A stretch of DNA of 64,000 nucleotides from Myxococcaceae bacterium (GTDB taxonomy: Bacteria; Myxococcota; Myxococcia; Myxococcales; Myxococcaceae): positions 90,174 to 154,173 of the forward strand of contig JBGALX010000012.1 in assembly GCA_044223505.1 (NCBI GenBank), in the 5' to 3' direction. Of the stretch, positions 10,425 to 64,000 are shown piece after piece. A program made the translations under genes and the position numbers. The notes under the pieces are model-generated. The model had not been told where the DNA came from, did not search any database, and saw nothing but the letters and a program-made list of their open reading frames with translations. Within the stretch, counting starts at the first letter, position 1. Each line of letters begins with the position of its first letter.

Positions 10425-10613
10425 GGCTGTGGTAGGGCTCCGAGGGCGCTCGAGAGAAAGTTCCCGAGCTCGACGCGCTTCTCAGCAATCGAGAGACCAG
10501 CGCGGCCGAGCACTGAAGTGGGCATGCGCGCTGGAGCCACTGTCTCATCGCAGAGGACACCTGCGCTCGGTGCGCAACGGCCACACTCGATGCGCATTGC
10601 GCTCGGGCTCAGC

Positions 10614-17044: not shown

Positions 17045-17425
17045 GTGGCGGTGGTACTGGTGGTCGATGACGAGCCTGGCAACCTCAGCACCTTCGTGCG
17101 GTGTTTTCGCCGCGACTACGAGCTGAAGACGGCGCTGAGCGCGGCCGAGGCAGTGGCGGCGCTCGAGGCAGGGCCCATCGACGTCGTCGTGACGGATCAA
17201 GCGATGCCGCAGGTCACAGGCGTCGAGCTGCTCAAGGTGGTGAGCGCGCGCTGGCCCCACGTGGCGCGGCTCGTCGTGAGCGGCCACGAGAACCAGCCCG
17301 AGTTGATCAAAGCCCGCCGTGACGGGCTCGCGCACGAGCTGCTCTGGAAGCCGTGGGAGAAGGCCGACGTGCTCGCGGCCATCGCACGAGCCATGAACGT
17401 CGTTCGCCCCCGGCAGGGGCCGTGA
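17045..17425 (+). CDS. Response regulator receiver domain protein.
   Basis: VVLVVDDEPGNL...VVTDQAMPQVTG...LWKPW. GTG start chosen; the exact start is uncertain. Confidence 0.7.
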   Translation: MAVVLVVDDEPGNLSTFVRCFRRDYELKTALSAAEAVAALEAGPIDVVVTDQAMPQVTGVELLKVVSARWPHVARLVVSGHENQPELIKARRDGLAHELLWKPWEKADVLAAIARAMNVVRPRQGP

Positions 17426-30346: not shown

Positions 30347-30793
30347 ATGACCGAGACCGAGACCGACAGCGACCTGGTGCTGGAGATGCGCCGCCGGGTG
30401 CGCCGCCACATGCTGACGTCGCTGGGCGGAATCGTGTTTGGGTTCTTCTTGCTCGTCGGCGTCGGCGGCGGGATGAGGGCCTCGGGCGTGACCGGCCCGG
30501 TGGCGGCGCTGCCGGTGCTCGGGGTGCTGATCATCCCCGCGGTGGGCTGGTGGTCGACGTTCAAGAACATTCGCTGCCCGTCGTGCGACCGGCTGGTCGT
30601 GTGGATCATGAGCTCGAACTACTCGGTGTTCGGCAGCATGGCGCCGAAGCATTGCCCGGGCTGCGGCAAGCAGATCTTCAGCGCTGCCAGCACGCGCCGG
30701 TTCTTTCGCATGGTGTTCATCTTCGTGGGCATCGGGGTCGCCCTCGCCGTGCTCGGTGGGGTCGCCTCGGCGATGATGCGGCCTCACCACTGA
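30347..30793 (+). CDS. Membrane protein with a zinc-ribbon (CPSC...CPGC).
   Basis: Four TM segments flank CPSCDRLV...CPGCGKQIF. Confidence 0.5.
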   Translation: MTETETDSDLVLEMRRRVRRHMLTSLGGIVFGFFLLVGVGGGMRASGVTGPVAALPVLGVLIIPAVGWWSTFKNIRCPSCDRLVVWIMSSNYSVFGSMAPKHCPGCGKQIFSAASTRRFFRMVFIFVGIGVALAVLGGVASAMMRPHH

Positions 30794-30938
30794 GCCCGGC
30801 GCGCGATCGAGTCTGGCGCAGCGTGCACCTTCTCGGTGCGATGAGCGCTGCTCGCCCGAGGGCGCTGGGGTGGCACCGCGCTCGCACTTGACGGTCGCGC
30901 AGCCGAACCCAACAGCACTCGATGAAAGGGGCTTCACG

Positions 30939-39997: not shown

Positions 39998-40822
39998 ATG
40001 GAGCCGCTCAACCTGAAAGGCCGCTACACCCTCGTCACCGGCGCCTCGGCCGGCCTCGGGCGCGAGATGGCCAAAGAGATCGCGAAGGCCCACGGCGGCA
40101 ACCTCGTGCTCGTCGCCCGCCGCAGAGAGCGCCTCGAAGAGCTCGCCCGAGAGGTCGAGGCCCACGGCGTCAAGGCCGCCTGCATCGCCGCCGACTTGTC
40201 GAAGCCCGACGACGTCGAGCGCGTGTTCCGCGAGTCGACCGACGGCCGCGACATCTACGCCGCCATCTTGAACGCCGGAGTCACCTACTTCGGCCACCAC
40301 CTCGAGCTGCCGCGCTCCGAGGCGCAGGCGCTGCTCGCCACCAACCTCTACAGCGTGCTCGAGCTCAGCCAGAGCTTCCTGCAGCACCAGCTCGCGAAGG
40401 CGCCCGGCGGCGGCGTCATGGTCGTGAGCTCGGTCGCCGGCACGATGCCGACGCCGTACCAGGCGCTCTACTCGGGCACGAAGGCGTTCTTGAACACGTG
40501 GGGCGTCGCGCTCGCCGAAGAGCTGCGGGGAAAAGACGTGTCGTTCACCGTCTTCGCGCCCGGCGGCATCGCGACCGAGATGGGCGAGAAGTCGGGCACC
40601 GCCCGCAAGTTCAAGAAGGGCGACGTCGGCATGATGGACGCCGACGTCTGCGCCCGCGCCGCGCTGTCGGCGTTCATTCGCCGAAAGCGCTGGGTCGTGC
40701 CCGGCGCGCTGAACGTGCTGAACGGCCTCTTGATGCGCTTCGTGCCGACGGCCACGCAGGCGTCGGTGGTCGCGGGGCTGTTCAAGAGCGCGGTGCTGCC
40801 CGCGGGCCAGAAGCAGGGCTAG
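39998..40822 (+). CDS. SDR-family oxidoreductase.
   Basis: TLVTGASAGLGREMA, NAG and YSGTKAF catalytic motif. Confidence 0.9.
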   Translation: MEPLNLKGRYTLVTGASAGLGREMAKEIAKAHGGNLVLVARRRERLEELAREVEAHGVKAACIAADLSKPDDVERVFRESTDGRDIYAAILNAGVTYFGHHLELPRSEAQALLATNLYSVLELSQSFLQHQLAKAPGGGVMVVSSVAGTMPTPYQALYSGTKAFLNTWGVALAEELRGKDVSFTVFAPGGIATEMGEKSGTARKFKKGDVGMMDADVCARAALSAFIRRKRWVVPGALNVLNGLLMRFVPTATQASVVAGLFKSAVLPAGQKQG

Positions 40823-49488: not shown

Positions 49489-50304
49489 TCAGCGCGCTGT
49501 GGCCACGGACCCTTCGTACTCGTCGTCGTACTGGCGCGGGTACGTGCGGGGCCAGACGATGCGCTCGAACGGCTGCACGGCGAGCGTCAGCACGCCCTCG
49601 AAGCCGCGCGGGCCGTACAGCGCGGGCGTGAGGGCGGTGAGCTCGAAGTAGACGAGCTGCATCGTGAAGCGAGCGCCGAGGGCTCCGCGGAGCTGCTGGC
49701 CGTGGCCCGCGGTCGCGCGCAGCTCGGCGGTGAACGAGAGGAAGCGCCACGGCGCGACGCTGAGCCCGCTCGTCACGTCGACGGCCGTGCCGAAGAGCCA
49801 CGCCCCGTCTTCGCTTCGCTCGTAGAAGCCGGGCGTGACGGCGACGCGCGCGTGCACCGCGGCGTAGCGAAAGGCGAGCAGCCCGTCGACGCCGAGCGAG
49901 CCGCCGGCGCGGCGCGAGGTGCCGAACGCCGGCAGCAGCGCCTGGAGGTCGAAGCCCACCGCGAGGTGCTCGGGCTCGAGCGGCGCCTGCCACGCGACGC
50001 CGAAGCGCACGGGGCCCGGCTGCTCGAAGCTCACGAACGCCTCGGCGCGCTTGCGTGAGCGCCACGAGACGAACGCGCCGCCGCCGTAGGCGAGGTGCTG
50101 CTCGACGGCGCCGGTGACCGCGGCCTCGGTGCGCAGGCACGCGCGGTGGGCGCCGCTCGCGCGCAGGGGGCCGTAGAGCTCGGGCGGCGTCTCACCCTCG
50201 AAGCACGGAGCGCCGTCGTCGAGGAAGTCGTCTTCGAGCGCGAGCGCAGTGCTCGAGACGATGACTGCGAGCACGACAGCGCCGCGGGTCACGGGCTTCT
50301 TCAC
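49489..50304 (-). CDS. Exported hypothetical protein, possibly a beta-barrel outer-membrane protein.
   Basis: Signal peptide MKKPVTRGAVVLAVIVSSTALA. Alternating hydrophobic beta-strand-like pattern. Confidence 0.6.
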   Translation of the reverse strand: MKKPVTRGAVVLAVIVSSTALALEDDFLDDGAPCFEGETPPELYGPLRASGAHRACLRTEAAVTGAVEQHLAYGGGAFVSWRSRKRAEAFVSFEQPGPVRFGVAWQAPLEPEHLAVGFDLQALLPAFGTSRRAGGSLGVDGLLAFRYAAVHARVAVTPGFYERSEDGAWLFGTAVDVTSGLSVAPWRFLSFTAELRATAGHGQQLRGALGARFTMQLVYFELTALTPALYGPRGFEGVLTLAVQPFERIVWPRTYPRQYDDEYEGSVATAR

Positions 50305-50873
50305 GACGCGGCTGCGTCGACCTCGGTGAGGAGCTTCGACCAGCGCTCGAGCCTGGCGTCCGTCGCGCCGACGATCTCCACGAGCGCGGTCTGAACGTAT
50401 CCACGGTCGAACGCGGGGCCCGTCGCGGCGACGAGACGCTCTACGTCAATGAGGTCCTTCGCTCGGAAGAAGAGCAACTTCATGACACAGAGGTCTTCGG
50501 GCGACAGAAACCACGCCGGGCGGCCCTCGAGGGGCGCGCGACGAATGCGCCGCTGCATCGAGTCATAGAACGGAATGCTCGGCACGAAGACATCGACGCG
50601 CATCGGCCCGAGCCATGCCTGGAAGTCGCCACGGTCGGCCGCCTGCGACCGCGCAGCGTTGGCGTCGAGCGAGCAACCCGCCTGCACGAGCACGCCGAAG
50701 ACCGTGTCCAGCCCTGGCGGCTCGACGAAGACGTCGAGGTCGACGTCCTTCGTGGCGCGTGGAAAGCCCCATACGCCGAGAGCGAGAGCTCCGCCGATGG
50801 CGTACGGCACGCCGCGAGCTTCGAGCAGGTCGGCGAGCCGTCGTGCGAGCTCTGGCGCGCTCGGGCCGCTCAC
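50301..50873 (-). CDS. Nucleotidyltransferase (Pol-beta superfamily) domain protein.
   Basis: GGALALGVWGFPRATKDVDLDVFV gives the G[GS]...D.D nucleotidyltransferase motif. A GTG start overlaps the stop of the upstream small ORF (GTGA). Confidence 0.6.
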   Translation of the reverse strand: MSGPSAPELARRLADLLEARGVPYAIGGALALGVWGFPRATKDVDLDVFVEPPGLDTVFGVLVQAGCSLDANAARSQAADRGDFQAWLGPMRVDVFVPSIPFYDSMQRRIRRAPLEGRPAWFLSPEDLCVMKLLFFRAKDLIDVERLVAATGPAFDRGYVQTALVEIVGATDARLERWSKLLTEVDAAAS

Positions 50874-51115
50874 GGCTTCCGGGCTCGTGCCAGGAGCTCT
50901 TTCCACAGGGCGAGGCTCTCGGGCGAGCGCTTGTCTTCCCACGCCCATGCCTTCGCTGGATTCGGGCTCGCCTCGATGGCGTCTCGGGCCCAGCGGCACA
51001 GCTCACTCAGAGCTCGAGCCAGCTCCTCGGGGCTCATGCCGGCATAGGGCGCGACGTCTTCGCGGATGGCGTCCCGATCGCTGCGTTGCCGCAGAGAGGC
51101 TGGGAGCTTCGTCAT
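50870..51115 (-). CDS. Small helical protein (81 aa) translationally coupled to the nucleotidyltransferase. Candidate cognate partner.
   Basis: MTKLPASLRQRSDRDAIREDVAPYAGMSPEELARALSELCRWARDAIEA... The start is trimmed so it does not overlap the divergent MoxR-family gene. Confidence 0.45.
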   Translation of the reverse strand: MTKLPASLRQRSDRDAIREDVAPYAGMSPEELARALSELCRWARDAIEASPNPAKAWAWEDKRSPESLALWKELLARARKP

Positions 51116-51168
51116 GTCCCGATCTTGTTCGTTCAGGCGTCGTGCCGCAATCGCGTAGTCTCGCCGCG

Positions 51169-52314
51169 ATGTCACCGGAGCTCCAGTCCGCCGCGACCTC
51201 GTTGCAGAAGGCGCTCGCCGCCGCGTCGCAATCGCTCGTCGAGCGCGAAGCCGTCGTTCAGCTCGTCGGCCTGTGCGCCGTGGCGTCCGAGCACCTGCTC
51301 GTCATCGGCCCGCCGGGCACCGCGAAGTCAGAGGCCGTGCGCCGCGTCGCGCGCGCCCTCGGAGGTCACTACTTCGAGTACCTGCTCGGCCGCTTCACCG
51401 AGCCCTCCGAGGTGTTCGGGCCCGTCGACCTGAAGCGGCTCAAAGAGGGCGTGGTCGAGACGCAGACCGACGGCATGCTGCCCGAGGCCGACATCGCCTT
51501 TCTCGACGAGGTGTTCCTCGGCTCGACGGCGATTCTGAACACGCTGCTCGGCATCTTGAACGAGCGCACCTTCCGCCGCGGGCACACGCGCATGACCTGC
51601 CCGCTGCGCGTCTGCGTCGGTGCGTCGAACGCGCTGCCGCAAGACGACATGCTCGGAGCGTTCGCCGACCGCTTCCTCGCGCGCATCTTCCTCACGTCGC
51701 TGCCCGACGCGCGGCTCGAAGAGCTGCTCGGCGGAGGCTGGGCGCTCGAGCAGAAGCCCCTCGAGCACCACGCGACGCTCGCGGACCTCTCGCTGCTCGC
51801 CGACGCGGCGCGAACGGTCGACGTGACGTCGGTGCGCGGGCCGCTCGCGCACTGCGTGCGGCTCTTGCGGCAGGCGGGCATTCACCTCACCGACCGGCGC
51901 GTGGTGCGGGTGCAGCGGCTGGTGGCGGCGGCGGCGATTCTCGCGGGCCGCATGCGGGCGACCGAGGCCGACCTGTGGCCGCTGCTCTACGCGGTGCCGA
52001 CGGCCGACGCTCAAGTGCTCGCGCGCGAGGTGCTGCACGACGTGCTGAAGGCGTCCGAGAACGCAGCGCTGCCGGCGGCGGCAGAAGAGGCGTCGCAGGG
52101 GCCGCTCGCGAGGGCGCACCGGCTCGCAGGCGCGGCGGGGCAACTGCTCGACGCGCCGCCCGAGAAGAGCGACGTGGCCGCGACGCAGGCGTGGCGCCTG
52201 AAGCTCGAGGGCGTGGCGCGCGAGATGGATGCGGGCTTCCCTCCAGAGCAGCTGCCCGAGGCGCTCAAAGCGCTGCGGCAGAGAATCGTCGACGCCACGA
52301 CGTCAGAGCCATGA
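51169..52314 (+). CDS. RavA-like MoxR-family AAA+ ATPase (AAA module only, no LARA domain).
   Basis: LLVIGPPGTAKSEAVRRVA...YFEYLLGRFTEPSEVFGPVDL...EADIAFLDEVFLGSTAILNTLLGILNERTFRRG closely parallels the RavA N-terminal module as recalled from memory. Confidence 0.8.
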   Translation: MSPELQSAATSLQKALAAASQSLVEREAVVQLVGLCAVASEHLLVIGPPGTAKSEAVRRVARALGGHYFEYLLGRFTEPSEVFGPVDLKRLKEGVVETQTDGMLPEADIAFLDEVFLGSTAILNTLLGILNERTFRRGHTRMTCPLRVCVGASNALPQDDMLGAFADRFLARIFLTSLPDARLEELLGGGWALEQKPLEHHATLADLSLLADAARTVDVTSVRGPLAHCVRLLRQAGIHLTDRRVVRVQRLVAAAAILAGRMRATEADLWPLLYAVPTADAQVLAREVLHDVLKASENAALPAAAEEASQGPLARAHRLAGAAGQLLDAPPEKSDVAATQAWRLKLEGVAREMDAGFPPEQLPEALKALRQRIVDATTSEP

Positions 52315-52338
52315 GCGTGAGCGCGTGAAGGGCGGCGC

Positions 52339-52752
52339 GTGAGAGTCACCTTCACCGCGAGAGCCGAGCCGCTGCTGGCGCAAGCGGTCGCGGCGATGCG
52401 AGAGCAGAAGAGGCTCCTCGCAGAGGGGCTGCTGAAGCTGCCAGACGAGCTCCTCGAGCGCATGAGCGGGGTCACCACGCCGGAGGCCGCCGTCGTCATG
52501 GGCCCGACGAGCGTGCTGCCGTGGTTCGACGGAGCGCTCTACCTCGGCGCCCGCGGCGGCCTATTGATGCCGTCGTGGGCCGAGCCCGACGTCGACCCGC
52601 AGCTGCTCGAGCGCGCGCTGAGGCGAGGTCTGCCGCAGGCGCCCGTCGGGCCGCTCGCGCTGCTGTTCACGCGGCTCGACGAAGCGCCGCTGGTGGTGCC
52701 GCTGTCGGGGGCGAGGCCGCTGTCGCGCGAGCACGTCGGCAAGCTGCTCTGA
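52339..52752 (+). CDS. Hypothetical protein (137 aa) immediately downstream of the MoxR-family gene.
   Basis: High GC3. A GAAGGG Shine-Dalgarno lies before the GTG. No vWA domain. Confidence 0.55.
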   Translation: MRVTFTARAEPLLAQAVAAMREQKRLLAEGLLKLPDELLERMSGVTTPEAAVVMGPTSVLPWFDGALYLGARGGLLMPSWAEPDVDPQLLERALRRGLPQAPVGPLALLFTRLDEAPLVVPLSGARPLSREHVGKLL

Positions 52753-52867
52753 CGACGACTCCGTTGCCTTCGGCGTCGAGCACCTCGAACGGCACCTGGC
52801 CGACGTGCGGTGCTCGACGAGCGAGCTGCGCGGGCTTGCGCCCAGGCTGGGCGGTTCGCGCCCTCGG

Positions 52868-55800
52868 CTACTTCCACTTGCCGTTGCCGAAGGTGCCGGC
52901 GACGGGCGGGGTGAGCTTCTCTCGGCCGCCGGTGCCGGCGTGGCACGAGGTGCAGTCTTCACCGGCGGTCGACCCCTCGTGGTTGCCGATGCGCTCCTGG
53001 TTGGCGCTCGGGTGGGTGATGGTCAGGCTGGCGTTGGTGGTCGTCGCGGTCGCGGCGCTCGAGATGGTGAAGCTCGTGGCGTTGGTGATGGTCCTGATGG
53101 TGATGGTGCCGGCGGGAATGGGGGTGCCGGTGATTCGCATACCGACCGCCAGATCCGCCGTCGAGGCGGTCGTCACCGTGGTGCTGCCCGACGTGGTCGA
53201 CGCGACGAGGGCGAGCGGCCCGCTGCTGACCAGGTACGGGCTGCCGGTGTTGTGGCACATCACGCAGTACGTCGGGTTGGTGCTCGCGTTGTAGAGCGTG
53301 CTGCCGAGGTTCGGCGAAGCGGCCACCCCGTTGATGGTCACGTTCGTCGTGAGGCCCGCATGGTTGTAGTTGGAGATCTTCGCGTAGTTCACGCCGGGGT
53401 GGCACTGCGCGCAGCTCGTGTAGGTATTGGCTGGCGGGTGGGCGAGGGTGATGGTGAGCGAGGTGATGTTCGAGCCCGACGTCCACGGGCCGAGCGTGAT
53501 GGTCGCGGGTGCGCCGGTGGCGCCCTTCCAGTTCGGCGCCGACGAGGTGCCGGTGCCCGGCCAGCTGTGACAGCTCGCGCAGTCTTGGCTGCCGGGAGTG
53601 CTCGTGAAGCCCGAGTGATTGTATTTGAACTGTGGCCCCGGCTTCACGTTCAGGTGGCAGTTGCTGCACCGCCCGTTCACGCCATCGCTCACGAGCGGGT
53701 TGCTGCCGGTGAACCGGGTGTGGAACCTCGCCTGCGCCCACTCGACGCCCATGACGCCGGCGACCGTCGAGGGCCCGCTCTGGGTATGGCAGAAGTTGCA
53801 GTCGTGGCCCGTCACGTTCACGTCGGCGTGCGTGATTTGGTCGTGTGTGCCCGGCGGCACGCCGCTGTCGGGCGTCGACGGCACCGTCGAGAGCGTCGCG
53901 CTGTCGATGAGCCCGGCGGGCAGGTTGTTCCTCGTGCCCACGACGTTGCCGCCGCCGTTCGTCAGGCCGTGGCACTCGCGGCAGGTCGTGGCCGTCGTCA
54001 CCGAGGCGTGGAAGGGGGCGCTCTTGCTCCATGCGCTGCCCGTGGCCTTGGCGTCGGCCCGGTGGCAGACCACACAGTCTTTGCCGATGACGAGGGGCGA
54101 GCCGTGGTTCATCCACTGGGCGCCGTTCGTGGCGGTGCCGCCCTGCGCGAGCGAGTAGGTCACGCTGCTCTGCGTCGAGGCGTTCGCGGCGGGCAGCGTC
54201 ACCTGGTGGCACGACACGCAGGTGGCAGGCTGGCTCGCACCGAAGCTCGAGTGCAGGGCGCCGCCGCTCCATCGCGTCGAGACCGGAGTCTGCGTCGCCA
54301 TGCCCAGCGCGCCCGAGTGGCACGTCTGGCACGCCTGAGTCGTCATCTCGGGCGCTCGGTGCTGCATGCGGTAGCGCATCATCAGCGTCAGGTCTGCCTG
54401 AGCGGCGCTCGCCATCAGCGGGTAGTGGCAGCTCACGCACTCGCTCGGCTGCTCGGCGCCGATTCGGGTGTGGAAGGTGCCGTCGGCCCAGCTGGTGCCG
54501 GGGGTGCCCCGGTGACAGGTCGAGCAGTCGAGCCCCGTCACGCCCGAGTCGGAAGCGAAGCGGGCGTGGTGGTCCATCGGGAGCAGCGTCGAGCTCATGC
54601 GCTCGACGATGCCCGGAGCCAGCATCTGGTTGTGACAGTCGAGGCACTGGCCGTTGGGCTGCGGCAGCCCCGCATCGGTGACCGCGAGGTGGAAGACGCC
54701 GTCGGCGTAGCCGCCCGGCTTGTGGCACAGCGGGCACCTCGACGTGTCGGGGTTCGAGCCGCCGTCAGACGAGCCCGGCCGCATCGAGAGGGGTATCGCC
54801 GTCGAAGCGTGCAGCATGCCCTGGTACAGCGGCACGTTCGTCGTCGACATCGACGTCACGAGGTTCAGCGGCCCAGAGCGGTTGAGCGTGATGTTGCTCA
54901 CGGTGATGAACCGACTCGTCGAGCTGATGAAGCTCGCCGGGTACGGCTCGCCGCCGGCCCAGTCGCTCAAGGCCTGGTAGCGGTTCGCGGTGACCGTCGC
55001 CTGGTGGCAGCCGAAGCAGTCGCCCGTGCCGTCGGTCGCGTGGTTGAAGGCCGGTGGGGCTCCGACGGGCATCGTCGGCCGCTGGCTCACGTGACACGAG
55101 ATGCAGCGCACGGCCGAGGGCGTGTTGGGGCCGTGCTGGAAGTCGCCGCCCACCCAGTTCGGAGTCCCGCCCCACATGCCGGTGCCCGGGCCCTTGTGGC
55201 AGAGCGCGCAGTCTTGACCGTCTCCGTGCGTGTTGCCGGAGCTGTTCGTGCCGTAGTCGAACGGCCGGCTGGTGTAGGTGGTGCTCAGCCACTGGGTGGT
55301 GTCGGTCGGGCGCCGCCCGTCGTGACACGGCAAGCAGGTGGCGGGCGTGGCCGAGCCCGCCAGGTGGAACCTGCCGCCCGCCCAGCCGGTGCCGTCGAGC
55401 GCGCTCGCGTTGAAGTGGCACGTCTTGCAGTCGGCGAGGGCGCTGGGCTCCTGGTGGTCGAACTTGAGGCCGTTCGGCTGGCTGACGATGGCGGTGGGGC
55501 GCGAGTTCGCGTGGCAGTCGAGACACGAGTCGACCCTCGCCGTCAGCGAGGGGTGGAACTTCGCCGGCGCCGCGCCGGTCTTGCCGTCGACCCACGTGGC
55601 CGCGCGGGCCGCGCTCGGCGCCTGGTGGCACAGCGAGCAGTCTTGCGGCACCAGCCCGGTCATCGTCGGAGCCCCGCTCGCCCACGCGACCGCTTCGTGC
55701 CTCATCTCGCCCGACGCCGGGTCGCGGCCGGGCGGGCTGACCAGCGGGCCGACGAACCCGCGGGGCTGCGTCGCGACGTGGCAGTCGGTGCAGCCGCTGA

Positions 55801-56518
55801 CGGTCACGCCCAGGGTCACGAGCGAGCTGTGGAGCTCGCCCGGGTAGTAGCCGCCGAGGGCGGCGTCGACGTGGCAGGCCTCGCAGGTCGCCAGGGTCGC
55901 CGCTGGAACCTGGGTCGAGCTGTGGTTCATCACCTGCTTGAGGCTCTGCTGATCAGGCGTCAGGCTGATGATCGACTGCCCCGACCAGGTCGGCACCAGC
56001 CCGGTGACCTGCACGTCACGGCTCGGGTCGCTCGAGTCGCTCGGCGCGCCGGTCGCGTCTTTCCAGGTCTGCGTGTTGTGGCAACCGCCGCACCCCGACG
56101 TGCCCATCGGCCGGTGCGTGAAGCCCGGGATCGGCAGCGCGGCGAACGGGGCGTCGACGTCGTGGCAGGTCGCGCACTCGCTCGACACGACGCCGGTGTG
56201 TGAGAACGGCATCTGTTCGCCGGTGGGGTGGCAGGTGAAGCACGTTCGCTCACCGAAGGTGTAGTCGCCGACGCCCTTGTGCAGCAGGCTCGAGATGCCT
56301 TGATCATGAATGTGGCAGCTGACGCAGGTGAAGTCTTTGAAGCTCTCGGCCGCCGGAGGGTGACAGGCGTCGCACCCGCTCAGCTTCGCGAGGTCGTGGT
56401 TGGTGCCCGCAACGATGGGGAAGTAGACGTGCCCCTCGGGCGTCAGGCCCTGGCCGGTGCCTTTTCCTCCGGGCGTACATGCGGCTGTGGCGACGACGGC
56501 GAGCGTCAGCAGGCGCAT
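52868..56518 (-). CDS. Giant multiheme c-type cytochrome lipoprotein (about 28 CxxCH motifs).
   Basis: MRLLTLAVVATAAC lipobox. 28 CxxCH heme-binding motifs counted across 1216 aa (CDACH, CVSCH, CFTCH, CATCH, CGGCH ... CVMCH, CTSCH). Thr/Ser/Gly-rich linkers sit between them. Confidence 0.9.
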   Translation of the reverse strand: MRLLTLAVVATAACTPGGKGTGQGLTPEGHVYFPIVAGTNHDLAKLSGCDACHPPAAESFKDFTCVSCHIHDQGISSLLHKGVGDYTFGERTCFTCHPTGEQMPFSHTGVVSSECATCHDVDAPFAALPIPGFTHRPMGTSGCGGCHNTQTWKDATGAPSDSSDPSRDVQVTGLVPTWSGQSIISLTPDQQSLKQVMNHSSTQVPAATLATCEACHVDAALGGYYPGELHSSLVTLGVTVSGCTDCHVATQPRGFVGPLVSPPGRDPASGEMRHEAVAWASGAPTMTGLVPQDCSLCHQAPSAARAATWVDGKTGAAPAKFHPSLTARVDSCLDCHANSRPTAIVSQPNGLKFDHQEPSALADCKTCHFNASALDGTGWAGGRFHLAGSATPATCLPCHDGRRPTDTTQWLSTTYTSRPFDYGTNSSGNTHGDGQDCALCHKGPGTGMWGGTPNWVGGDFQHGPNTPSAVRCISCHVSQRPTMPVGAPPAFNHATDGTGDCFGCHQATVTANRYQALSDWAGGEPYPASFISSTSRFITVSNITLNRSGPLNLVTSMSTTNVPLYQGMLHASTAIPLSMRPGSSDGGSNPDTSRCPLCHKPGGYADGVFHLAVTDAGLPQPNGQCLDCHNQMLAPGIVERMSSTLLPMDHHARFASDSGVTGLDCSTCHRGTPGTSWADGTFHTRIGAEQPSECVSCHYPLMASAAQADLTLMMRYRMQHRAPEMTTQACQTCHSGALGMATQTPVSTRWSGGALHSSFGASQPATCVSCHQVTLPAANASTQSSVTYSLAQGGTATNGAQWMNHGSPLVIGKDCVVCHRADAKATGSAWSKSAPFHASVTTATTCRECHGLTNGGGNVVGTRNNLPAGLIDSATLSTVPSTPDSGVPPGTHDQITHADVNVTGHDCNFCHTQSGPSTVAGVMGVEWAQARFHTRFTGSNPLVSDGVNGRCSNCHLNVKPGPQFKYNHSGFTSTPGSQDCASCHSWPGTGTSSAPNWKGATGAPATITLGPWTSGSNITSLTITLAHPPANTYTSCAQCHPGVNYAKISNYNHAGLTTNVTINGVAASPNLGSTLYNASTNPTYCVMCHNTGSPYLVSSGPLALVASTTSGSTTVTTASTADLAVGMRITGTPIPAGTITIRTITNATSFTISSAATATTTNASLTITHPSANQERIGNHEGSTAGEDCTSCHAGTGGREKLTPPVAGTFGNGKWK

Positions 56519-56713
56519 GGCTCAAATGTACCTTGACGCGGATCAAGGCAGGCGCGTGCGCGCGGCCTGGGCCTCTCGTTCGATGGAGACCTCGGCGCAG
56601 AAGGTCGCTGATGGCGCCGAAGGTCCCACAGCAGCCGGGGGTTCCCTCGAACCGCCGACCTTGTCGCCGTGCTTGTCTTTGCGCACAGGTCGAGCCACAC
56701 GTACCGCTCGACC

Positions 56714-57598
56714 ATGATGGCCTCGTACGAGATCGAGCTGCCCGAGCCCTCGCGGTCGCTGTGCGACTGCTGCGGTGGCCTGAGCGTCCGCATGACGCGG
56801 TTCGTGCTCCGCAACGACGCCCCGTACGCCGTCTACTGCGCCGCCTACTCGAACCATCGCTCGCACCGCGAGCTCGCGATGCTCGTGTCGCTCGGCGAGT
56901 GGGGCGAAGGCAGCACGCCTTCCCAGCGCTCGGCCTTCTACTGCCGCATTCGCCCGAGCGGTGACTCGTACGAGCTCATGCTCGGCGACGCCGCGAGGTC
57001 GAGCTGGGCCGACGACGAGCGCGTCGGCGCCAAGCTCTCGCGCGAGCAGGCCCTCGCGCACCCGATGAAGTCGATCGCGTTCGGGCTGATCGACGACGTG
57101 TTCCACAAAGACCCCTCGCTGCGCGGCTTCCTCGAGCGCGTGCACTGCGGCGACGCGGCGGCTCCGCTCGAGCGCAACTTCGCCATGCCCGACGACGTCT
57201 TCGAGCTCGGCGATGCGAGAGCGACACGCGCCGAGCTCGGCCGCAACTTCGTCGTGCTCGACGGCGAACGGCACTTCGTGCGCTGCCTGCTCCCGCTCGA
57301 CGTCGAAGAGTACGGCAGCTGGAACGTCGGCCTCTGGGTCGAGGTCTCGAAGGCCGACTACGACCACGCTTCGAAGGTGTGGGAAGACGCGGCGCTGTAC
57401 CCGAAGCTCGAGCTCCGAGGCACGCTCGCGAACGACGTCGCCACCGACATCGGGCTGCCCATCGCCGCGCGCAGCGAGCTTCACGTTCGCGTGGTCGACG
57501 CCGAAGAGCTGCCGCAGATCTCGCCGCCCGCGAGCCTCGCCCGGCAGTGGCCGAAAGACGACTTCGAGCGCTTCGCCGTCACGCGCGGCTTTCTGTGA
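56714..57598 (+). CDS. DUF2199-like protein with an N-terminal Cys cluster.
   Basis: MMASYEIELPEPSRSLCDCCGG...YAVYCAAYSNH... Family name recalled from memory. Confidence 0.6.
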   Translation: MMASYEIELPEPSRSLCDCCGGLSVRMTRFVLRNDAPYAVYCAAYSNHRSHRELAMLVSLGEWGEGSTPSQRSAFYCRIRPSGDSYELMLGDAARSSWADDERVGAKLSREQALAHPMKSIAFGLIDDVFHKDPSLRGFLERVHCGDAAAPLERNFAMPDDVFELGDARATRAELGRNFVVLDGERHFVRCLLPLDVEEYGSWNVGLWVEVSKADYDHASKVWEDAALYPKLELRGTLANDVATDIGLPIAARSELHVRVVDAEELPQISPPASLARQWPKDDFERFAVTRGFL

Positions 57599-58809
57599 TG
57601 CTGACGCTCGTCGTGCTGCTGCAGCTGCAGCAACCCTGGCCGCCCCCGCCGTGGGCACCGGGCGGGGCCTCGCGCCCCGAAGACCTCGCAATCACGCTCG
57701 CGACGATGGGGCCCGGCGACGGCGTCGCCTACATGGGAGGTCACTCGGCGCTCGGCGTCATCGACACGAAGCGCATGGAGGGCCGCCTCTACAACTTCGG
57801 CGTCGTCGAGTTCTCGCCCGACCTGATGTGGAACTTCGTGCTCGGCCGCCTCGACTTCTACGCCGACGAAGCGGCCATCGAGTCGACGTACGACGTGTAC
57901 CGCGCGCTCGACCGCGACGTCCGCGTGCAGGTGCTGAACTTGAGCCCCGAGCAGTCGCTGAAGCTGGCGAACGCGCTCGCGGTGGGCGTGCTGCCCGAGA
58001 ACCGCACGTTCCGCTACCACCACTTCGACGACAACTGCTCGACGCGACCTCGCGACCTCATCGACCGGGCGTTCGGCGGCGCCCTGTCGCGCGACAACCA
58101 GGGCCCGGCGCGCATGAGCCTGCGCGAGCACTCGCGGCGCTACACGAGGGTGTTCCCCTTCTTGTCGGTCTGGCTCGACTACATGCAGAACGACAGCGTC
58201 GACCGGCCCATCAAGCGCTACGACGAGGCCTTCCTGCCCGACGAGCTCGAGCGGCAGCTCGACAACCTCGTCGTCGACGGCCAGAGCGCCGTGAAGAAGA
58301 AGACGACGCTCTACCAGTCGAAGACGAACCCGCCGCCGCCGAACGACTCGCCCCGCTGGAGCGCCTGGCTCGCCTGCTTCTCGCTGCTCGCCGGCGCCGC
58401 GGTGCTGGTGCTGAGCCGCAGCCGGAAGGCCGCCGCGCGCAAGGCGCTCGGGGTCTTCTTCGCGCTCGTCGGTCTCGTCTGGGGCGGCAGCGGCCTCTTG
58501 CTGTTCATGCTCGGGTTCTTCACCGAGCACCTCATCACGCACGGCAACGAGAACCTGCTGTTCGCGAGCCCGCTGACGCTGCTGCTCTTGCCGCTGGGAG
58601 TGCTGCTGTACCGGAATCACCCGCGCGCGCTGAAGGGGCTCGAGTGGGTGACGCTCGCGCTCGCCGGCCTCGCGCTCATCGGCGTCGCCGCGAAGGTGCT
58701 GCCGAGGTTCGACCAGCAGAACGGCAACGTCATCGCCCTGGTGCTGCCGCTGAGCCTCGCGTGCGCCGTCGCCTTCCGGCTTCGCGGCCGCGCTGAAGCG
58801 AAGAGCTGA
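57598..58809 (+). CDS. DUF4105-family membrane protein (periplasmic N-domain plus about 4 TM helices).
   Basis: Signal/TM segment MLTLVVLLQLQQ. Middle region ...RVQVLNLSPEQSLKLANALAVGVLPENRTFRYHHFDDNCSTRPRDLID. A C-terminal TM bundle. The start overlaps the upstream stop (TGATG); the exact start is accurate to about 3 nt. Confidence 0.65.
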   Translation: MLTLVVLLQLQQPWPPPPWAPGGASRPEDLAITLATMGPGDGVAYMGGHSALGVIDTKRMEGRLYNFGVVEFSPDLMWNFVLGRLDFYADEAAIESTYDVYRALDRDVRVQVLNLSPEQSLKLANALAVGVLPENRTFRYHHFDDNCSTRPRDLIDRAFGGALSRDNQGPARMSLREHSRRYTRVFPFLSVWLDYMQNDSVDRPIKRYDEAFLPDELERQLDNLVVDGQSAVKKKTTLYQSKTNPPPPNDSPRWSAWLACFSLLAGAAVLVLSRSRKAAARKALGVFFALVGLVWGGSGLLLFMLGFFTEHLITHGNENLLFASPLTLLLLPLGVLLYRNHPRALKGLEWVTLALAGLALIGVAAKVLPRFDQQNGNVIALVLPLSLACAVAFRLRGRAEAKS

Positions 58810-58836
58810 GGTCGCCGCCGTCGAAGGGGGCTTCCG

Positions 58837-60351
58837 TCAGAGCTGACTGGGGTCCGTCGGCGCGCCGAGGCCCTTCGCGTTGAGAATCGCCTGCTCCTGG
58901 GGCAGCCGCTCGAGCCAGAACGTGCGCAAGAAGTCGAACGCCTTCGCGAGGGTCTTGCTCGGGGCGTCGAAGTTCGCTCCGCCGTCCTGGCCCGAGGCCT
59001 TCAGCATCGCGTAGAGCAGCTTCGGCACGTAGTCGTTCTTCTTCACCTCGTACGACGAGGGCACCATCGGGAAGCCGCGGTCGTGGTGGAAGTTGAACTC
59101 GAAGAACTCGATGGCGCTCTTGAGCTGCGGGTCCTTCACCTCGGCGAGCTTGTCGGCCAGCTCGGCGCGCCACACGTCGATCTGCTTCTGCAGCTGGCGG
59201 ATCTGCGGCTCGGTCATGCGGTGCTCGGCCTCGTACGCCAGCCGCTTCCCGAAGATCGCCGAGTTGTGCCGCGCGTCGTGCACGTAGAAGTCGGAGCCCG
59301 GGCGCACGAAGCCGTCTGCCGCGACCGGCTCCTGCGTGACGCCCATCAGGAACAGGTCGTACTGCGCGAGCCGCATGAAGACGTCGGTGCCGAGGGGCTC
59401 GCTGGTCGGCAGGCTGATCAGCTTCAGCTCCGACGTGTTCGCGAACGCGTCGACGAACGGCTTCTGCACCTTCCGGAAGCCCGAGCCGACGCCGGGGTTC
59501 GCCTCGAAGATCGTCATCTGCCGGCTCTCGAAGAGCTTCACCTCTTCGGCCATCGTCACGTGCTTGTGGCCCTGCAGGAACCGATCGACGACCAGGAACG
59601 CGCGGTCTTTGAGCGAGAGGTCGCCCTCGTCGAAGTGCCCCATCGCGCGCGCCGAGAAGTACGAGAGCTCTTGCAGCCGCTCGTAGTCGATCTTCCCGCC
59701 CTTCAGGTGCCCGGCGACCTCGGCCTTCAGCGTCTGCAGGTGGTGGATGCCGAGCTCGTGCTCGGCGATCGCAGCAGTGTCGCCCTTCGGCAGGCGCTCG
59801 AGCTGTGAGCGCACCTTCTCGAGCTCCGCGCCGAGGTCCTTCTCGAAGCCCTTCAGCACCGGCAGGCCGTAGTCGCTGAAGTCGAAGCGGTACGGGTGCG
59901 CCGGGTCGACGCTGCGCTGCTCGGCGAACCGCGTCTTCACGCTCGCGATGAACGCGTCGGGGTCCTTCAGCACGACGTCGAGCGTCGGGTACTTGCCCAC
60001 CAGCTTCGCGTTCGCCTCGGCGTAGACCTTCTGCTGCTTCGCCGTCGCGCCGACGCCGAAGAGCGCGTCGGCCGAGCTCGCCTGGTGTTTCCCGAACCAG
60101 GCATGAGCCTGCGACGTCGTCGCCTTCGTCAGCTCGCCGACGAGCGCAGCGGCGCCGAGGCCGTCGTGCGCGCCCGCCTTCGCCTTGAACGCATCGGACA
60201 GCACCGCCTGCTCCGACGGCTGCAGCGGCCGGCCGAGGTGCCGCTCGGCCGCTGTCACGAGCTTCTGCAGCGTGGGCGACTCGACGGCGAGCCGCTGCTG
60301 CACGAAGGCGGCGAGGCCGGCGGTGGGCGCAGCGCTCTTGCTCAGGGCCAT
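58837..60351 (-). CDS. Hypothetical protein (504 aa), no signal peptide, no recognisable domain.
   Basis: High GC3 throughout. Lys-rich. Sits downstream of the muramidase gene on the same strand. Confidence 0.6.
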   Translation of the reverse strand: MALSKSAAPTAGLAAFVQQRLAVESPTLQKLVTAAERHLGRPLQPSEQAVLSDAFKAKAGAHDGLGAAALVGELTKATTSQAHAWFGKHQASSADALFGVGATAKQQKVYAEANAKLVGKYPTLDVVLKDPDAFIASVKTRFAEQRSVDPAHPYRFDFSDYGLPVLKGFEKDLGAELEKVRSQLERLPKGDTAAIAEHELGIHHLQTLKAEVAGHLKGGKIDYERLQELSYFSARAMGHFDEGDLSLKDRAFLVVDRFLQGHKHVTMAEEVKLFESRQMTIFEANPGVGSGFRKVQKPFVDAFANTSELKLISLPTSEPLGTDVFMRLAQYDLFLMGVTQEPVAADGFVRPGSDFYVHDARHNSAIFGKRLAYEAEHRMTEPQIRQLQKQIDVWRAELADKLAEVKDPQLKSAIEFFEFNFHHDRGFPMVPSSYEVKKNDYVPKLLYAMLKASGQDGGANFDAPSKTLAKAFDFLRTFWLERLPQEQAILNAKGLGAPTDPSQL

Positions 60352-60543
60352 GGGGTGACTTCACTCGCCCACCCGGTGAGCCACAATGCCGCGCGGCGCC
60401 ACTCCGAGTGGTACGGCGCGCCAGCCGCGGCCGCATGAACGTGCGAACCATCGAGCGGGCGTCGCTTCGCGAGCCACGACGTTCCGAGGTCAGGGCCTTG
60501 AAGCTCGGCCTCGTCGCCGCCGCGCTCGTGCGCGGGTTCGACC

Positions 60544-61851
60544 TCAGAACCAGCCCGCCCACTTCCGCAGCGCGAGCTCCGAGCCGCTGAAGACGTCGTT
60601 GTCGACGCCGCCCTTGATGCCCGTCTGCACGAACGGGAACTTGTAGTCGCTGCTCTGCGGGCTCCAGTGCGCGTCCCAGATGGGCGAGTGCGGCACGAGG
60701 TGGTGCGCCTGAGACACCCTGCTCGCCGAGCAGTAGATGAGCGGCCACTGCCCGGTCACCTGGTGCACGCGCACCGCCGCGTCGCGCAGCGTCTGCGGCG
60801 ACGAGAGCGCGCTGGCCTCCCAGTCGAGCGCGAGCCGCGTGCCCGGCTTCAGCGGCCCGTGCACGCCCATCGTCTTCAGGAAGTGGTCGGCCTGCGCACG
60901 GCCGTTGCCCGGCTGCAGGAAGTGGTACGCGATGCGCAGGTCGAACTTGCCGGGCTCGAGCTTCTTGCCGAGCGTGCTCCAGCGCCCGCGGAAGGTGCTG
61001 TCGACGCCGCGCGAACCGTCGGTCGCTTTGATCGCCATGAACCGCGTGCCAGGTCGCGCGAGCAGCTCGCGGAACTTCGCGTCGCTCTGCCAGTGCGAGA
61101 CGTCGTAGCCCTTCTGAAACCCGCCCGGCTTCACCGAGGGGAAGCGGCCGGCCGTCGCCGCCTTCTTCTGCAGCGCCGCCCGCGTCGCGCGGTTCGCCTC
61201 GCCCGTCACGGTGAGCCCCTGCCTCCGCTGAAACGCCCGCACCGCGCGCGCCGTGTCTGACGTGAAGCGGCCGTCGGCCTTGCCGGGGTCGCGGCCGAGC
61301 AGCTTCAGGTTCAGCTCGGCCTGCTTGACGCGGAACTGCGAGGTCTGGGCGAGCTGCGCGCCGATGGCGTCGCCCTTGTCGGGCACGAGCTTGTCCTGCT
61401 TGCGGAAGGCGTGGATGGCCGCGAGCGTCTTCGCGTCGAACGTGCCGTCGACCTTGCCGGTGTCGAAGCCGAGTGCGTCGAGCCGCGCTTCGACGGCGCG
61501 AATGTCGGTGCCGCGCTGGCCGAGCCGCGCGGGCGTCTCGAAGCCGCTCTTCACGAACAGCTGCTGCGCCTTGAGCGCGTTGACCTCGGCGGCGTCGAGC
61601 ACGCCGTCGGCGGTGAGGTCCTTCTGCGTCTGCAGCGCAGTGACCGCGGTCTGCGTCGCGGCGTCGTACGTGCCGTTCACCGGGCCGGTGTATGCGCCGA
61701 CTCCGCGCAAGAGCCGCTGCAGCGCTTCGACCGCGGGGCCGGTCTCGCCGGGCTGAAGCTGCTCGGCTCCGGCGACCGACGCGGTGATCCGCGAGAGATC
61801 CGCTCGCACGGCCTTCACTTCGCTGGGGAGAACCCGGTGGCGGAGAATCAT
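60544..61851 (-). CDS. GH25-family muramidase (lysozyme) fused to 4 peptidoglycan-binding (PG_binding_1-like) repeats. No signal peptide.
   Basis: Repeats GPAVEALQRLLRGVGAYTGPVNGTYDAATQTAV, GTDIRAVEARLDALGFDTGKVDGTFDAKTLAAI and two more. A GH25 core follows: GYDVSHWQSD...FMAIKATDG. Confidence 0.75.
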   Translation of the reverse strand: MILRHRVLPSEVKAVRADLSRITASVAGAEQLQPGETGPAVEALQRLLRGVGAYTGPVNGTYDAATQTAVTALQTQKDLTADGVLDAAEVNALKAQQLFVKSGFETPARLGQRGTDIRAVEARLDALGFDTGKVDGTFDAKTLAAIHAFRKQDKLVPDKGDAIGAQLAQTSQFRVKQAELNLKLLGRDPGKADGRFTSDTARAVRAFQRRQGLTVTGEANRATRAALQKKAATAGRFPSVKPGGFQKGYDVSHWQSDAKFRELLARPGTRFMAIKATDGSRGVDSTFRGRWSTLGKKLEPGKFDLRIAYHFLQPGNGRAQADHFLKTMGVHGPLKPGTRLALDWEASALSSPQTLRDAAVRVHQVTGQWPLIYCSASRVSQAHHLVPHSPIWDAHWSPQSSDYKFPFVQTGIKGGVDNDVFSGSELALRKWAGWF

Positions 61852-62062
61852 GACGACGTTTTCGAGCGCAGGTCGCGCTCCGTCGCCTGAAACGCCGGCG
61901 TGACGCAGACAAGCGCCACAGATGATTCGCGCTTCGACGCGTTTCTCTTCGCGTGAGAGCGCACTGTGAAGAAGCGTGCTCGAGAATTTTCGCAGAATCG
62001 CTGGCGCGCTTTACATCGTGCGCGTCATCGGGCGCCGCTCTTCGCAGCCTTCTTCGGCCGGG

Positions 62063-62305
62063 TCACTTGACGCTCTTCTCCCAGTCGTCGGTGCTGCTGA
62101 TGTTGCCGTCCTTCCAGATGGACTCGATCTTCTGGTGCGTGGTGCTCGGCTTCGTCTTGCTGTCCGCCGTGTCCTTCACCTCGAACGTGTCGTTCGCCTT
62201 CGGCGCCGCCGGCATCTTCTTCTCGACCTTGCACTGCTCGACCTTCGCGGTCAGCGGCCTCGCCTTCGGTGCGACGGAGGGACGGAACGTGACCTTCGAG
62301 CCCAT
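62063..62305 (-). CDS. Small Lys-rich hypothetical protein (80 aa).
   Basis: MGSKVTFRPSVAPKARPLTAKVEQCKVEKKMPAAPKANDTFEVKDTADSKTKPSTTHQKIESIWKDGNISSTDDWEKSVK. Near-perfect GC3 codon bias. Present only as the tail of a 572-aa spurious track ORF. Confidence 0.5.
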   Translation of the reverse strand: MGSKVTFRPSVAPKARPLTAKVEQCKVEKKMPAAPKANDTFEVKDTADSKTKPSTTHQKIESIWKDGNISSTDDWEKSVK

Positions 62306-62416
62306 GGAGGGCCCGAGTACAGCAAGGTGAGGGCCAGCGATGCACGCAGCAAACACGCCCGGTTCCCTCGAACGCCGGCATTGCGCACGTGACGACGCCG
62401 CTGGCACGCTTCGACC

Positions 62417-64000
62417 GTGAGCGAGCTGCCCAAACCGCTTCAGCGATGGACGCAAGCGCTCGCGCTCTTCCCGCGCCACCTCGCGCTCGAGCTCGGCGCC
62501 TGGCTGCCGCGCCTCCACGGCGCGCTCGGCCCGATGCGCACCGGCAGCGTCGAGGGCACCGACGAGCCCGACGGCTTCGACGGCCTCTCGCGCCGCGGCC
62601 CCTACGAGCGGCTGCTCAGCGCCGAGTGGGCGCTCGCCGACGAGCACCCCGACGAGTTCGCGCGCCGCGCCTCCAGCGGCGAGCACGCGTTCTTCCGCCT
62701 CGCGTTCCGCGCTCCCGCCGGCAAGCGCCGCTGCCTCGTGCTCTTGGACAGCGGCCCCTCGCAGCTCGGCACTCCGCGGCTCGCCCACCTCGCCGCCCTC
62801 GCCGTGCTCGAGCGCCGCGCCGCCGAGGCCCGCTCCGAGTTTCTCTGGGGCGTGCTCCAGCAGCCGCCCGGCCGCTTCCTCACCGGCCTCTCGCAGTCGG
62901 CCGTCGAGCACTGGCTCAACGCGCGCACCGGCGCCGAGCCCACGCCCGGCGACCTCTCGGGCTGGCGCGAGGCGTTCGGCCGCAGCGGGCCCGACGACGA
63001 GGTCTGGGTGCTCGGCTCGCCGCGCGCTGCCCGGTTCGAAGAGGTGAGCCTGCTGCTCGTGCGCGACGCTCCCGGCGCGCTCGCCGTCGAGCTCAAGCCC
63101 CGCGCCGGAGCCCGCCGCGAGGTGGTGCTCCCGCTCCCGTCGGAAGAGGTCTGCACCCAGCTCATCCGCGACCCGCTCAAGCGCGAGGCGCCCATCGACC
63201 GCCTCGCCGGCCCCTCGACGAACCTCGTGTTCATCGCCGGCGGCTCGCGCCTGCTCTACGGCACCGCCGGCGGCTCGCTCGTCACGCACATCATCCCCGG
63301 CGCGCCCGGCTTCGCGTCGGCGCCGGTGTGGTGGGCTCCGCCGAAAGACGAAGAGGTCGTCGCCGCCGGCTGGGACAAGGGCCTCCTGCTCGTCACGCGC
63401 CGCGACGGCGCGCTGCGCGTCAACTGGTACAACAAGCGCGGCCAGCTGCGCGGGCAGGGCGCGTGGCACCTCTTCGGCCCGAAGAGCACCGAGCCCGTGC
63501 GGCACCTCACGAACCTCATCGGCCCCTGCGTGCACGCTCCGGCGTGGCACGTCGTGACGAGCCACGGCGACCTCGCCGCCTTCATGCCCGACCGCACGTA
63601 CGCGGTGCGCAAGCGCAACGTCGCCGCCGTCGCGCTCCACAAGGGCCGGCTGCTCACCGTCGAGCGCAAGAACGGCGAGGCCCACATCGAGCTCGTGCCG
63701 CCTGCGCCCGGCGCCGCCGTGAAGTTCCCCGCGCCCGGCCGCGCCGTCGAGCGCACCGGCGTGAAGATTCAGCTCTTCCACCCCGCGAAGGAGCGCGTCG
63801 CCGGCGTCTTTCAGGACCTCGCCGCCGACGCCGGCATCATCACCGTGCGCGGCGTCATGCCGACCGCGCCCGTCGTGTTCGGCTTCGACAACGTCGCCGA
63901 GCAGAGCGTCGCCGTCGGCATTCAGCTCCCCGACGGCCGCTGGCGCGTCGTGCGCCTGAGGAAGAACGTCGACTGCTCCGACATCGCCGTGCCGCTCACC
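62417..64000 (+). CDS. Hypothetical protein, partial (runs off the right edge; not in the ORF track).
   Basis: Frame opens after TGA at 62390. A GTG at about 62417 gives VSELPKPLQRWTQALALFPRHLALELGAWLP... About 525 codons have very high GC3 and no stop. No domain recognised. Confidence 0.55.
   Translation, partial: MSELPKPLQRWTQALALFPRHLALELGAWLPRLHGALGPMRTGSVEGTDEPDGFDGLSRRGPYERLLSAEWALADEHPDEFARRASSGEHAFFRLAFRAPAGKRRCLVLLDSGPSQLGTPRLAHLAALAVLERRAAEARSEFLWGVLQQPPGRFLTGLSQSAVEHWLNARTGAEPTPGDLSGWREAFGRSGPDDEVWVLGSPRAARFEEVSLLLVRDAPGALAVELKPRAGARREVVLPLPSEEVCTQLIRDPLKREAPIDRLAGPSTNLVFIAGGSRLLYGTAGGSLVTHIIPGAPGFASAPVWWAPPKDEEVVAAGWDKGLLLVTRRDGALRVNWYNKRGQLRGQGAWHLFGPKSTEPVRHLTNLIGPCVHAPAWHVVTSHGDLAAFMPDRTYAVRKRNVAAVALHKGRLLTVERKNGEAHIELVPPAPGAAVKFPAPGRAVERTGVKIQLFHPAKERVAGVFQDLAADAGIITVRGVMPTAPVVFGFDNVAEQSVAVGIQLPDGRWRVVRLRKNVDCSDIAVPLT

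Follow-up and report, generated by a model that had tools for sequence, protein, structure and literature searches.

A putative MenT1-like toxin-antitoxin cassette beside a split beta-propeller MoxR operon in a Myxococcaceae bacterium

Do a nucleotidyltransferase (NTase) gene pair and a MoxR ATPase gene pair that lie back to back in a Myxococcaceae bacterium form one system or two? The four genes (50301-52752) are found in a 64,000-nucleotide stretch of contig JBGALX010000012.1 (GenBank assembly GCA_044223505.1, positions 90,174 to 154,173 of the forward strand), which we call the window, and a first-pass annotation had grouped them as reminiscent of NTP-dependent conflict systems. We found that they are very likely two independent modules, adjacent only through local insertions: a MenT1-like cassette of the toxin-antitoxin (TA) type beside a beta-propeller MoxR-vWA ternary system whose operon is split. 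Both modules are members of kinds already known, and their adjacency is due to chance.

The first-pass annotation had implied a link between the NTase pair and the MoxR gene, and comparison with other loci does not support it. At 87 NTase loci (361 kb), we found no relative of the MoxR ATPase, of its 137-aa partner bpX5, of the 271-aa protein encoded on the other side of the NTase pair or of gene 3 (the next gene of the beta-propeller operon). Conversely, neither the NTase nor its 81-aa partner was found in the six related Myxococcota loci of the beta-propeller system that we reached via bpX5 homologues (L002/L003, L004/L010, L012, two JGI contigs and the more distant L011). At L002, the closest relative, a 261-aa gene directly adjoins bpMoxR, back to back, and 51 bp separate the homology blocks, versus 908 bp here; the NTase pair is therefore a 908-bp insertion relative to L002, and blastn block boundaries place this window-specific segment at 50248-51155. 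The combined neighborhood is conserved nowhere else, whereas each module alone is strongly conserved.

All four genes are present where they had been described, together with the GTGA overlap and the divergent arrangement. On the minus strand, the gene of the 81-aa protein (50870-51115) is followed by the NTase gene (50301-50873), whose GTG start (50873-50871) overlaps the TGA stop of the 81-aa gene (50872-50870) to give the GTGA. The NTase had been reported as 191 aa; the gene stands as described, and its product is 190 aa, as the 191 codons include the stop. Divergently, on the plus strand and after a spacer of 53 bp (51116-51168), the gene of the MoxR-class ATPase (bpMoxR; 51169-52314, 381 aa) is followed after 24 bp by the gene of the 137-aa bpX5-domain protein (52339-52752). 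The coding frames are clear from the G+C content at third codon positions (GC3), which is 0.77-0.92 in frame for the four genes in a window of 69-75% GC, and the start of the 81-aa gene is backed by the N-termini of its homologues (MT.LP.SL). By GC3 and by the numbers of homologues (822 for the NTase and 30 for the 137-aa protein), all four genes are real.

Which system does the MoxR pair belong to? We found that the ATPase matches Pfam family PF20030 (bpMoxR) at 1.6e-85 (285.8 bits versus a cutoff of 27), as well as AAA_5 at 1.9e-23, and that the 137-aa protein matches PF19921 (bpX5) over its full length at 2.7e-18 (66.4 bits versus a cutoff of 27). The two genes had been said to match no system that could be named; they match curated families, and bpMoxR and bpX5 are components of the beta-propeller MoxR-vWA ternary system (Pfam bpMoxR and bpX0-bpX6) that Kaur et al. 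described in eLife in 2020 (PMC7159879). That system is marked by an unusual GxxxTAKS P-loop, by vWA domains that have diverged and by additional linked genes whose fold is unknown (PMC7159879); the bpX names themselves were not found in the supplement of that paper. The P-loop of the ATPase here is GPPGTAKS, i.e. the GxxxTAKS variant. The components of beta-propeller systems include a vWA protein with a C-terminal beta-propeller of about four blades and a third component with a variable N-terminus, a TPR region and a beta-propeller. By family assignment, bpMoxR and bpX5 are thus genes 1 and 2 of a known ternary system. The earlier description of the ATPase as RavA-like is borne out by an NCBIfam RavA match (6e-43), yet at 148 bits this match is far under its cutoff of 681, and RavA is a distant relative only. 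Profile searches against VMAP families had also been proposed for the 137-aa and 81-aa proteins, and no Pfam VMAP match was found for either; the 137-aa protein is bpX5 instead.

Is the rest of the ternary system missing? The six related loci share a common order on one strand, namely bpMoxR, bpX5, a protein of 580-627 aa, a bpX6 protein of 852-884 aa, a protein of about 320-395 aa and further genes, and bpX5 comes directly after bpMoxR in every related locus examined. With its TPR-like central part and a weak PQQ_2 (propeller) match at the C-terminus, the bpX6 protein of the relatives fits the third component of Kaur et al. In the window, no vWA gene adjoins the MoxR/137-aa pair, as had been noted, and the next gene 3' of the 137-aa gene encodes a convergent 1216-aa multihaem cytochrome. 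We found by tblastn that the 5' part of gene 3 lies further downstream, at 62417-64000 on the plus strand (527 codons, ending at the window edge), with 90.5% identity to the 614-aa protein of L002, 75% to that of L004 and 53% to that of L012. By blastn synteny, a second window-specific segment (52733-62398) splits the operon: the gap between the flanking homology blocks of bpX5 and gene 3 is 8 nt in L004, 1.35 kb in L002 and 9.67 kb in the window. The Pfam annotation of this segment gives the multihaem cytochrome, a DUF2199 protein, a 507-aa protein without family match and a peptidoglycan-binding/GH25 muramidase. Hence, the "vWA-less" look of the MoxR pair is probably the product of a 9.67-kb insertion that split the operon and displaced its remainder downstream. 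In comparison with L002, bpMoxR is 93% identical, and dN/dS is 0.14 for bpMoxR, 0.42 for bpX5 and 0.20 for gene 3; hence, all three genes are still maintained under purifying selection. The first two genes of the system thus tolerate separation from the remainder while under purifying selection, and annotators should recognize bpMoxR/bpX5 even where the operon is split.

Gene 3 is a candidate for the vWA component of the system, whose vWA domains Kaur et al. call divergent. In the relative L002, the operon also carries foreign-looking small genes (17210-17659 and 10408-11479): one of them, for a TacA1-domain/GNAT-like protein of 149 aa, lies inside the operon, and the others, a 245-aa reverse-strand gene and a 101-aa gene, sit at the bpX5/gene 3 junction, the same junction that is split in the window. 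This junction seems prone to insertions. The cytochrome within the 9.67-kb segment (52868-56518, minus strand) is c-type, with MtrC/MtrF-like and c7/c3 domains.

What is the NTase? Its Pfam matches were all sub-threshold (DUF6036, 22.6 versus 23.6 bits; AbiEii PF08843, 15.1 versus 22.5 bits; and NTP_transf_5), and since the AbiEii and DUF6036 matches fall under the gathering score, the NTase is a divergent relative that current models miss. A word search gave 822 family members, mostly of 187-190 aa and annotated as hypothetical, and one metagenome scan gave 348 confirmed stretches; the family is found mainly in metagenomes of Myxococcota/"Deltaproteobacteria", with only two partial matches in viral contigs. 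The best PDB match of a 38-sequence NTase profile was MenT1 (8AN4, Rv0078A), over its full length, with an E-value of 5.8e-5. We found the same with the AlphaFold2 model (pLDDT 97.4), for which the top five Foldseek matches were MenT1/MenAT1 structures (8AN5, 8AN4 and 8RR5; TM 0.71-0.77, E 1e-9 to 2e-7), followed by ANT(2'')-Ia, LnuA, JHP933 and MenT3.

The catalytic residues agree with this match. Residues T40, D42, D44, K131 and D142 of the NTase align with the catalytic residues T39, D41, D43, K137 and D152 of MenT1 (PMC10435456). Across 38 homologues, all five are either invariant or conserved in 90% or more of the sequences. Motif I (hG[GS], then Dh[DE]h with the metal-binding Asp pair, D41/D43 in MenT1) is present as IGGALALGVWGFPRATKDVDLDV, and its G26, G27, D42 and D44 are invariant or nearly so and align to MenT1. 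The third acidic residue, of motif II, is the invariant D93 in RVDVFV, aligned to VVVDLLF of MenT1, and the DUF1814-specific C-terminal motifs III/IV are represented by K131 (at least 90% conserved) and D142 (invariant). T40 is also invariant, in PRAT(K/N)DVD, and aligns to PRFTRDVD of MenT1. In the MenT toxins, a phospho-acceptor Ser/Thr lies two residues before the first catalytic Asp (T39 in MenT1 and S78 in MenT3), and MenA1 induces auto-phosphorylation of MenT1 at T39 (PMC11375011). Judged by its best profile and fold matches, the NTase is a MenT1-like enzyme of the DUF1814/AbiEii class and a putative toxin. The earlier reading, in which a Pol-beta-type NTase of AbiEii-like class and a small helical protein are translationally coupled in the manner of a TA pair, is upheld, and of the systems to which it had been likened, the TA-type pairing stands while the class is that of MenT rather than MNT/HepT.

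The 81-aa protein belongs to an unannotated family and is the only unannotated element of both modules. A word search gave 19 close homologues, and at 50% identity we found 66 clusters of the family among 1.84 billion representatives. Its AlphaFold2 model is all-helical (helices 14-24, 29-48, 53-57 and 65-79; pLDDT 72). The family gave no consistent Pfam match, nothing in the PDB by profile and nothing by Foldseek on the AlphaFold2 model, and its profiles did not retrieve the antitoxin chain of 8AN5 (MenA1) from the PDB. Profile checks against HEPN and AbiEi had been proposed, and neither family matched: neither the 81-aa protein nor any of 58 family members had a HEPN match in Pfam, and no AbiEi match was found for the protein in Pfam or the PDB. 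AbiEi has a winged helix-turn-helix (wHTH) N-terminal domain and a C-terminal domain, in about 200 aa. Since the 81-aa protein contains no histidine, it cannot carry the HEPN Rx4-6H motif, and the first-pass statement that no HEPN partner is present holds. A helix-turn-helix motif was considered and rejected, as the sub-threshold Crp-type match seen in six of 22 close members occurred in only one of 58 members of a diverse set and is put down to chance. Matches to the family were also seen inside longer proteins (P0189, 290 aa; P0177, 378 aa; P0182, 307 aa; and P0204, 206 aa); in the 290-aa protein the match is at the N-terminus, and such proteins could be antitoxin-NTase fusions or gene-calling artefacts.

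How constant is this pairing? With an iterated hidden Markov model, we found the 81-aa family directly upstream of the NTase, and on its strand, at 75 of 80 metagenome loci; of the 70 loci that have 260 nt or more of upstream sequence, 69 show this pairing, with a usual overlap of 1-20 nt, and a family member is likewise upstream of the NTase in L005-L009. Four loci on long contigs show the two genes either overlapping by 4 bp or 22 bp apart, and the flanking genes are unrelated. In the window, GC3 is 0.77-0.83 for the NTase pair versus 0.91-0.95 in neighbor genes. No terminal repeats or target duplications were found flanking the pair, which is a putative mobile two-gene TA-type cassette. Beyond the RavA-like match of MoxR, scans of the NTase, 81-aa, 137-aa and 271-aa proteins with PADLOC, NCBIfam and PHROGs gave nothing useful.

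The insertion touches the host gene on its other side. This gene (49489-50304, minus strand), which belongs to neither module, encodes a signal-peptide protein of 271 aa without Pfam match, and its GTG start (50304-50302) overlaps the NTase stop (50303-50301) in a second GTGA. The 271-aa protein is 62-64% identical to the product of the L002 261-aa gene that is directly divergent from bpMoxR, and its signal-peptide N-terminus differs from that orthologue exactly at the insertion boundary (50248-50304). The insertion of the cassette thus appears to have rebuilt the 5' end of the 271-aa gene, whose transcription the cassette may now drive. One possibility is that bpMoxR and the secreted 271-aa protein, whose genes flank the cassette on either side, have now come under promoter control from it. 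Scans for sigma-70 promoters and terminators were empty, which is uninformative in Myxococcota of 71% GC. Over a wider range, synteny with L002 covers a KaiC-like gene, a short-chain dehydrogenase, a MopE-repeat protein, DUF2330, the 261/271-aa gene and bpMoxR, and the window differs from L002 by three insertions of 4.6 kb, 0.9 kb and 9.7 kb.

Several results weigh against the reading of a MenT1-like cassette beside a split ternary system. For the NTase, the Pfam AbiEii match is sub-threshold, the AbiE-type models of PADLOC do not match, and the next-best structural matches after MenT1 are aminoglycoside and lincosamide NTases. For the 81-aa protein, no similarity to MenA1, to AbiEi or to any known antitoxin was detected in either sequence or fold; hence, what points to an antitoxin role is its position and its conservation. 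For gene 3 and its orthologues, we found no Pfam match even at E<=10 (N- and C-terminal halves, four loci), no match of the gene 3 profile in the PDB, and no hhalign match to two approximate vWA query sequences. Since these searches were negative, we infer the vWA assignment of gene 3 rather than observe it. In addition, the bpX6 gene expected after gene 3 would fall past position 64000, outside the window. Lastly, through the three GTGA and 53-bp junctions, the cassette probably shares regulatory DNA with both flanking host genes, and hence a secondary regulatory coupling is possible.

Could the four genes nevertheless be one new NTP-dependent conflict system, in which MoxR with a non-vWA partner regulates the NTase pair or is regulated by it? 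We consider this highly improbable. The genes do adjoin and diverge, and with only 53 bp between them the promoter DNA must be shared; both modules are also of the conflict-system type. The lack of co-occurrence (none of 87 NTase loci with MoxR/bpX5, none of six beta-propeller loci with an NTase) largely refutes it. At the L002 locus, no NTase pair stands between MoxR and the directly divergent 261-aa gene, and MoxR-bpX5 has conserved downstream partners of its own. The idea of a new conflict system made of an NTase and a "vWA-less" MoxR is a false lead, which is hereby removed. A somewhat less remote alternative, which we still regard as unlikely, concerns the MoxR side: that MoxR-bpX5 is an autonomous, vWA-independent two-gene module here, and that the split marks uncoupling or decay of the ternary system. 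The 9.67-kb insertion, with its opposite-strand genes, interrupts co-transcription, L002 is interrupted by 1.35 kb at the same junction, and bpX5 evolves faster than its neighbors (dN/dS 0.42). Set against this, gene 3 is kept nearby, 90% identical to its orthologue and with a dN/dS of 0.20, MoxR and bpX5 are intact, and the genes are contiguous in six other loci.

We give about the same small chance to the proposal that the NTase is a small-molecule modifier, either a resistance enzyme of the ANT(2'')/Lnu type or a metabolite adenylyltransferase, with the 81-aa protein as an accessory or regulator. ANT(2'')-Ia and LnuA do follow MenT1 as next-best structural matches (TM 0.54-0.65, E about 1e-5). 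MenT1 nevertheless clearly outranks all other matches in the profile search as well as in the fold search, the DUF1814 motifs III/IV (K131 and D142) and the phospho-acceptor Thr40 are conserved, and TA cassettes typically have such an obligate small gene upstream, overlapping and set in variable contexts. The evidence thus favors a MenT1-like TA-type cassette and a separate, split beta-propeller system.

How would such modules work? By analogy to MenT1 and MenT3, the NTase would most likely add nucleotides to tRNA 3' ends and so block aminoacylation and translation. The coupled 81-aa helical protein would bind and neutralize it, possibly by way of auto-phosphorylation of the active-site Thr40, as MenA1 does with Thr39 of MenT1. 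These steps are proposed because of homology to the MenT toxins; the observations are of the fold, the residues and the gene pairing. For the other module, Kaur et al. predicted that the AAA+ MoxR is an ATP-driven chaperone or a threshold switch acting on propeller-bearing partners (PMC7159879), and by that prediction bpMoxR would be an AAA+ chaperone switch on such partners, any activity of the system being conjectural.

A more tentative proposal, and one we hold to be possible though rather doubtful, is that the 81-aa protein represents a third, structurally unrelated class of MenT antitoxin, which like MenA1 and MenA3 would induce auto-phosphorylation, here at Thr40. If this were true, control by antitoxin-triggered auto-phosphorylation would hold as a general principle for a large, Myxococcota-centered clade of at least 800 short DUF1814 toxins. 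The MenT1-like short NTase family, with its obligate unannotated partner and its kept phospho-acceptor Thr, provides a test set outside mycobacteria for the auto-phosphorylation model.

Other features were seen around the two modules. A further window-specific block relative to L002 (44901-49519) lies between DUF2330 and the 271-aa gene and encodes a metallophosphoesterase, a PilZ-Ser/Thr kinase and a regulator with two OmpR-type winged-helix domains and a GAF domain. Upstream of the beta-propeller system, a cluster with a KaiC-like double ATPase, response regulators, PilZ and a short-chain dehydrogenase is found in three genomes (window 36334-40820; L002 354-4215; L004 2265-6428), and its conservation in all three indicates that the system has a stable chromosomal location in this lineage. 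In L012, a second MoxR gene (1-690, minus strand; bpMoxR, AAA_3 and AAA_lid_2 matches) lies about 8 kb upstream of the beta-propeller system, with DUF4175 and Peptidase_MA_2 genes close by, and is probably part of another MoxR operon. Elsewhere in the window, a 761-aa protein (30777-33062, plus strand) matches the Major Vault Protein (MVP) shoulder domain (PF11978, 5e-28) and the vault repeat (PF17795), and looks like a bacterial MVP-like protein in a Myxococcota genome.

Among known systems, those of MNT/HepT (type VII) and AbiEi/AbiEii (type IV) share with the NTase pair a two-gene operon of a Pol-beta-fold NTase and a partner, and AbiEii is of the same DUF1814 superfamily. The partner here differs from HepT in that it is not a HEPN protein, having no histidine and no Pfam match, and from AbiEi in that it is not a wHTH protein of about 200 aa; the NTase, in turn, is under the AbiEii threshold and has no PADLOC AbiE match. 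The closest likeness is to MenAT1 of M. tuberculosis (Rv0078B-Rv0078A). The toxins are only about 21% identical, that of the window is under the Pfam AbiEii threshold, and the 81-aa partner is not detectably related to MenA1 (Rv0078B; a long alpha1 and a short alpha2). The two systems nonetheless agree in toxin length (190 aa here versus 197 aa), in fold (the best match, TM 0.71-0.77), in the catalytic residues and the phospho-acceptor Thr within the same PRxT(K/R)DVD loop, and in a small helical protein encoded immediately upstream in one operon (81 aa here versus 68 aa for MenA1).

The MoxR module resembles RavA-ViaA in that its ATPase is also of the AAA+ MoxR class and has an NCBIfam RavA match; it differs in having no LARA domain and no ViaA, and Pfam places the ATPase specifically in bpMoxR. 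Relative to the system of Kaur et al., the operon here is broken by the 9.67-kb insertion after bpX5, and the bpX6 gene is outside the window. It agrees with that system in its above-threshold bpMoxR and bpX5 matches, in the GxxxTAKS P-loop, in a host lineage of the multicellular type (Myxococcota), and in the gene order that its relatives keep, with the bpX6/TPR/propeller protein downstream.

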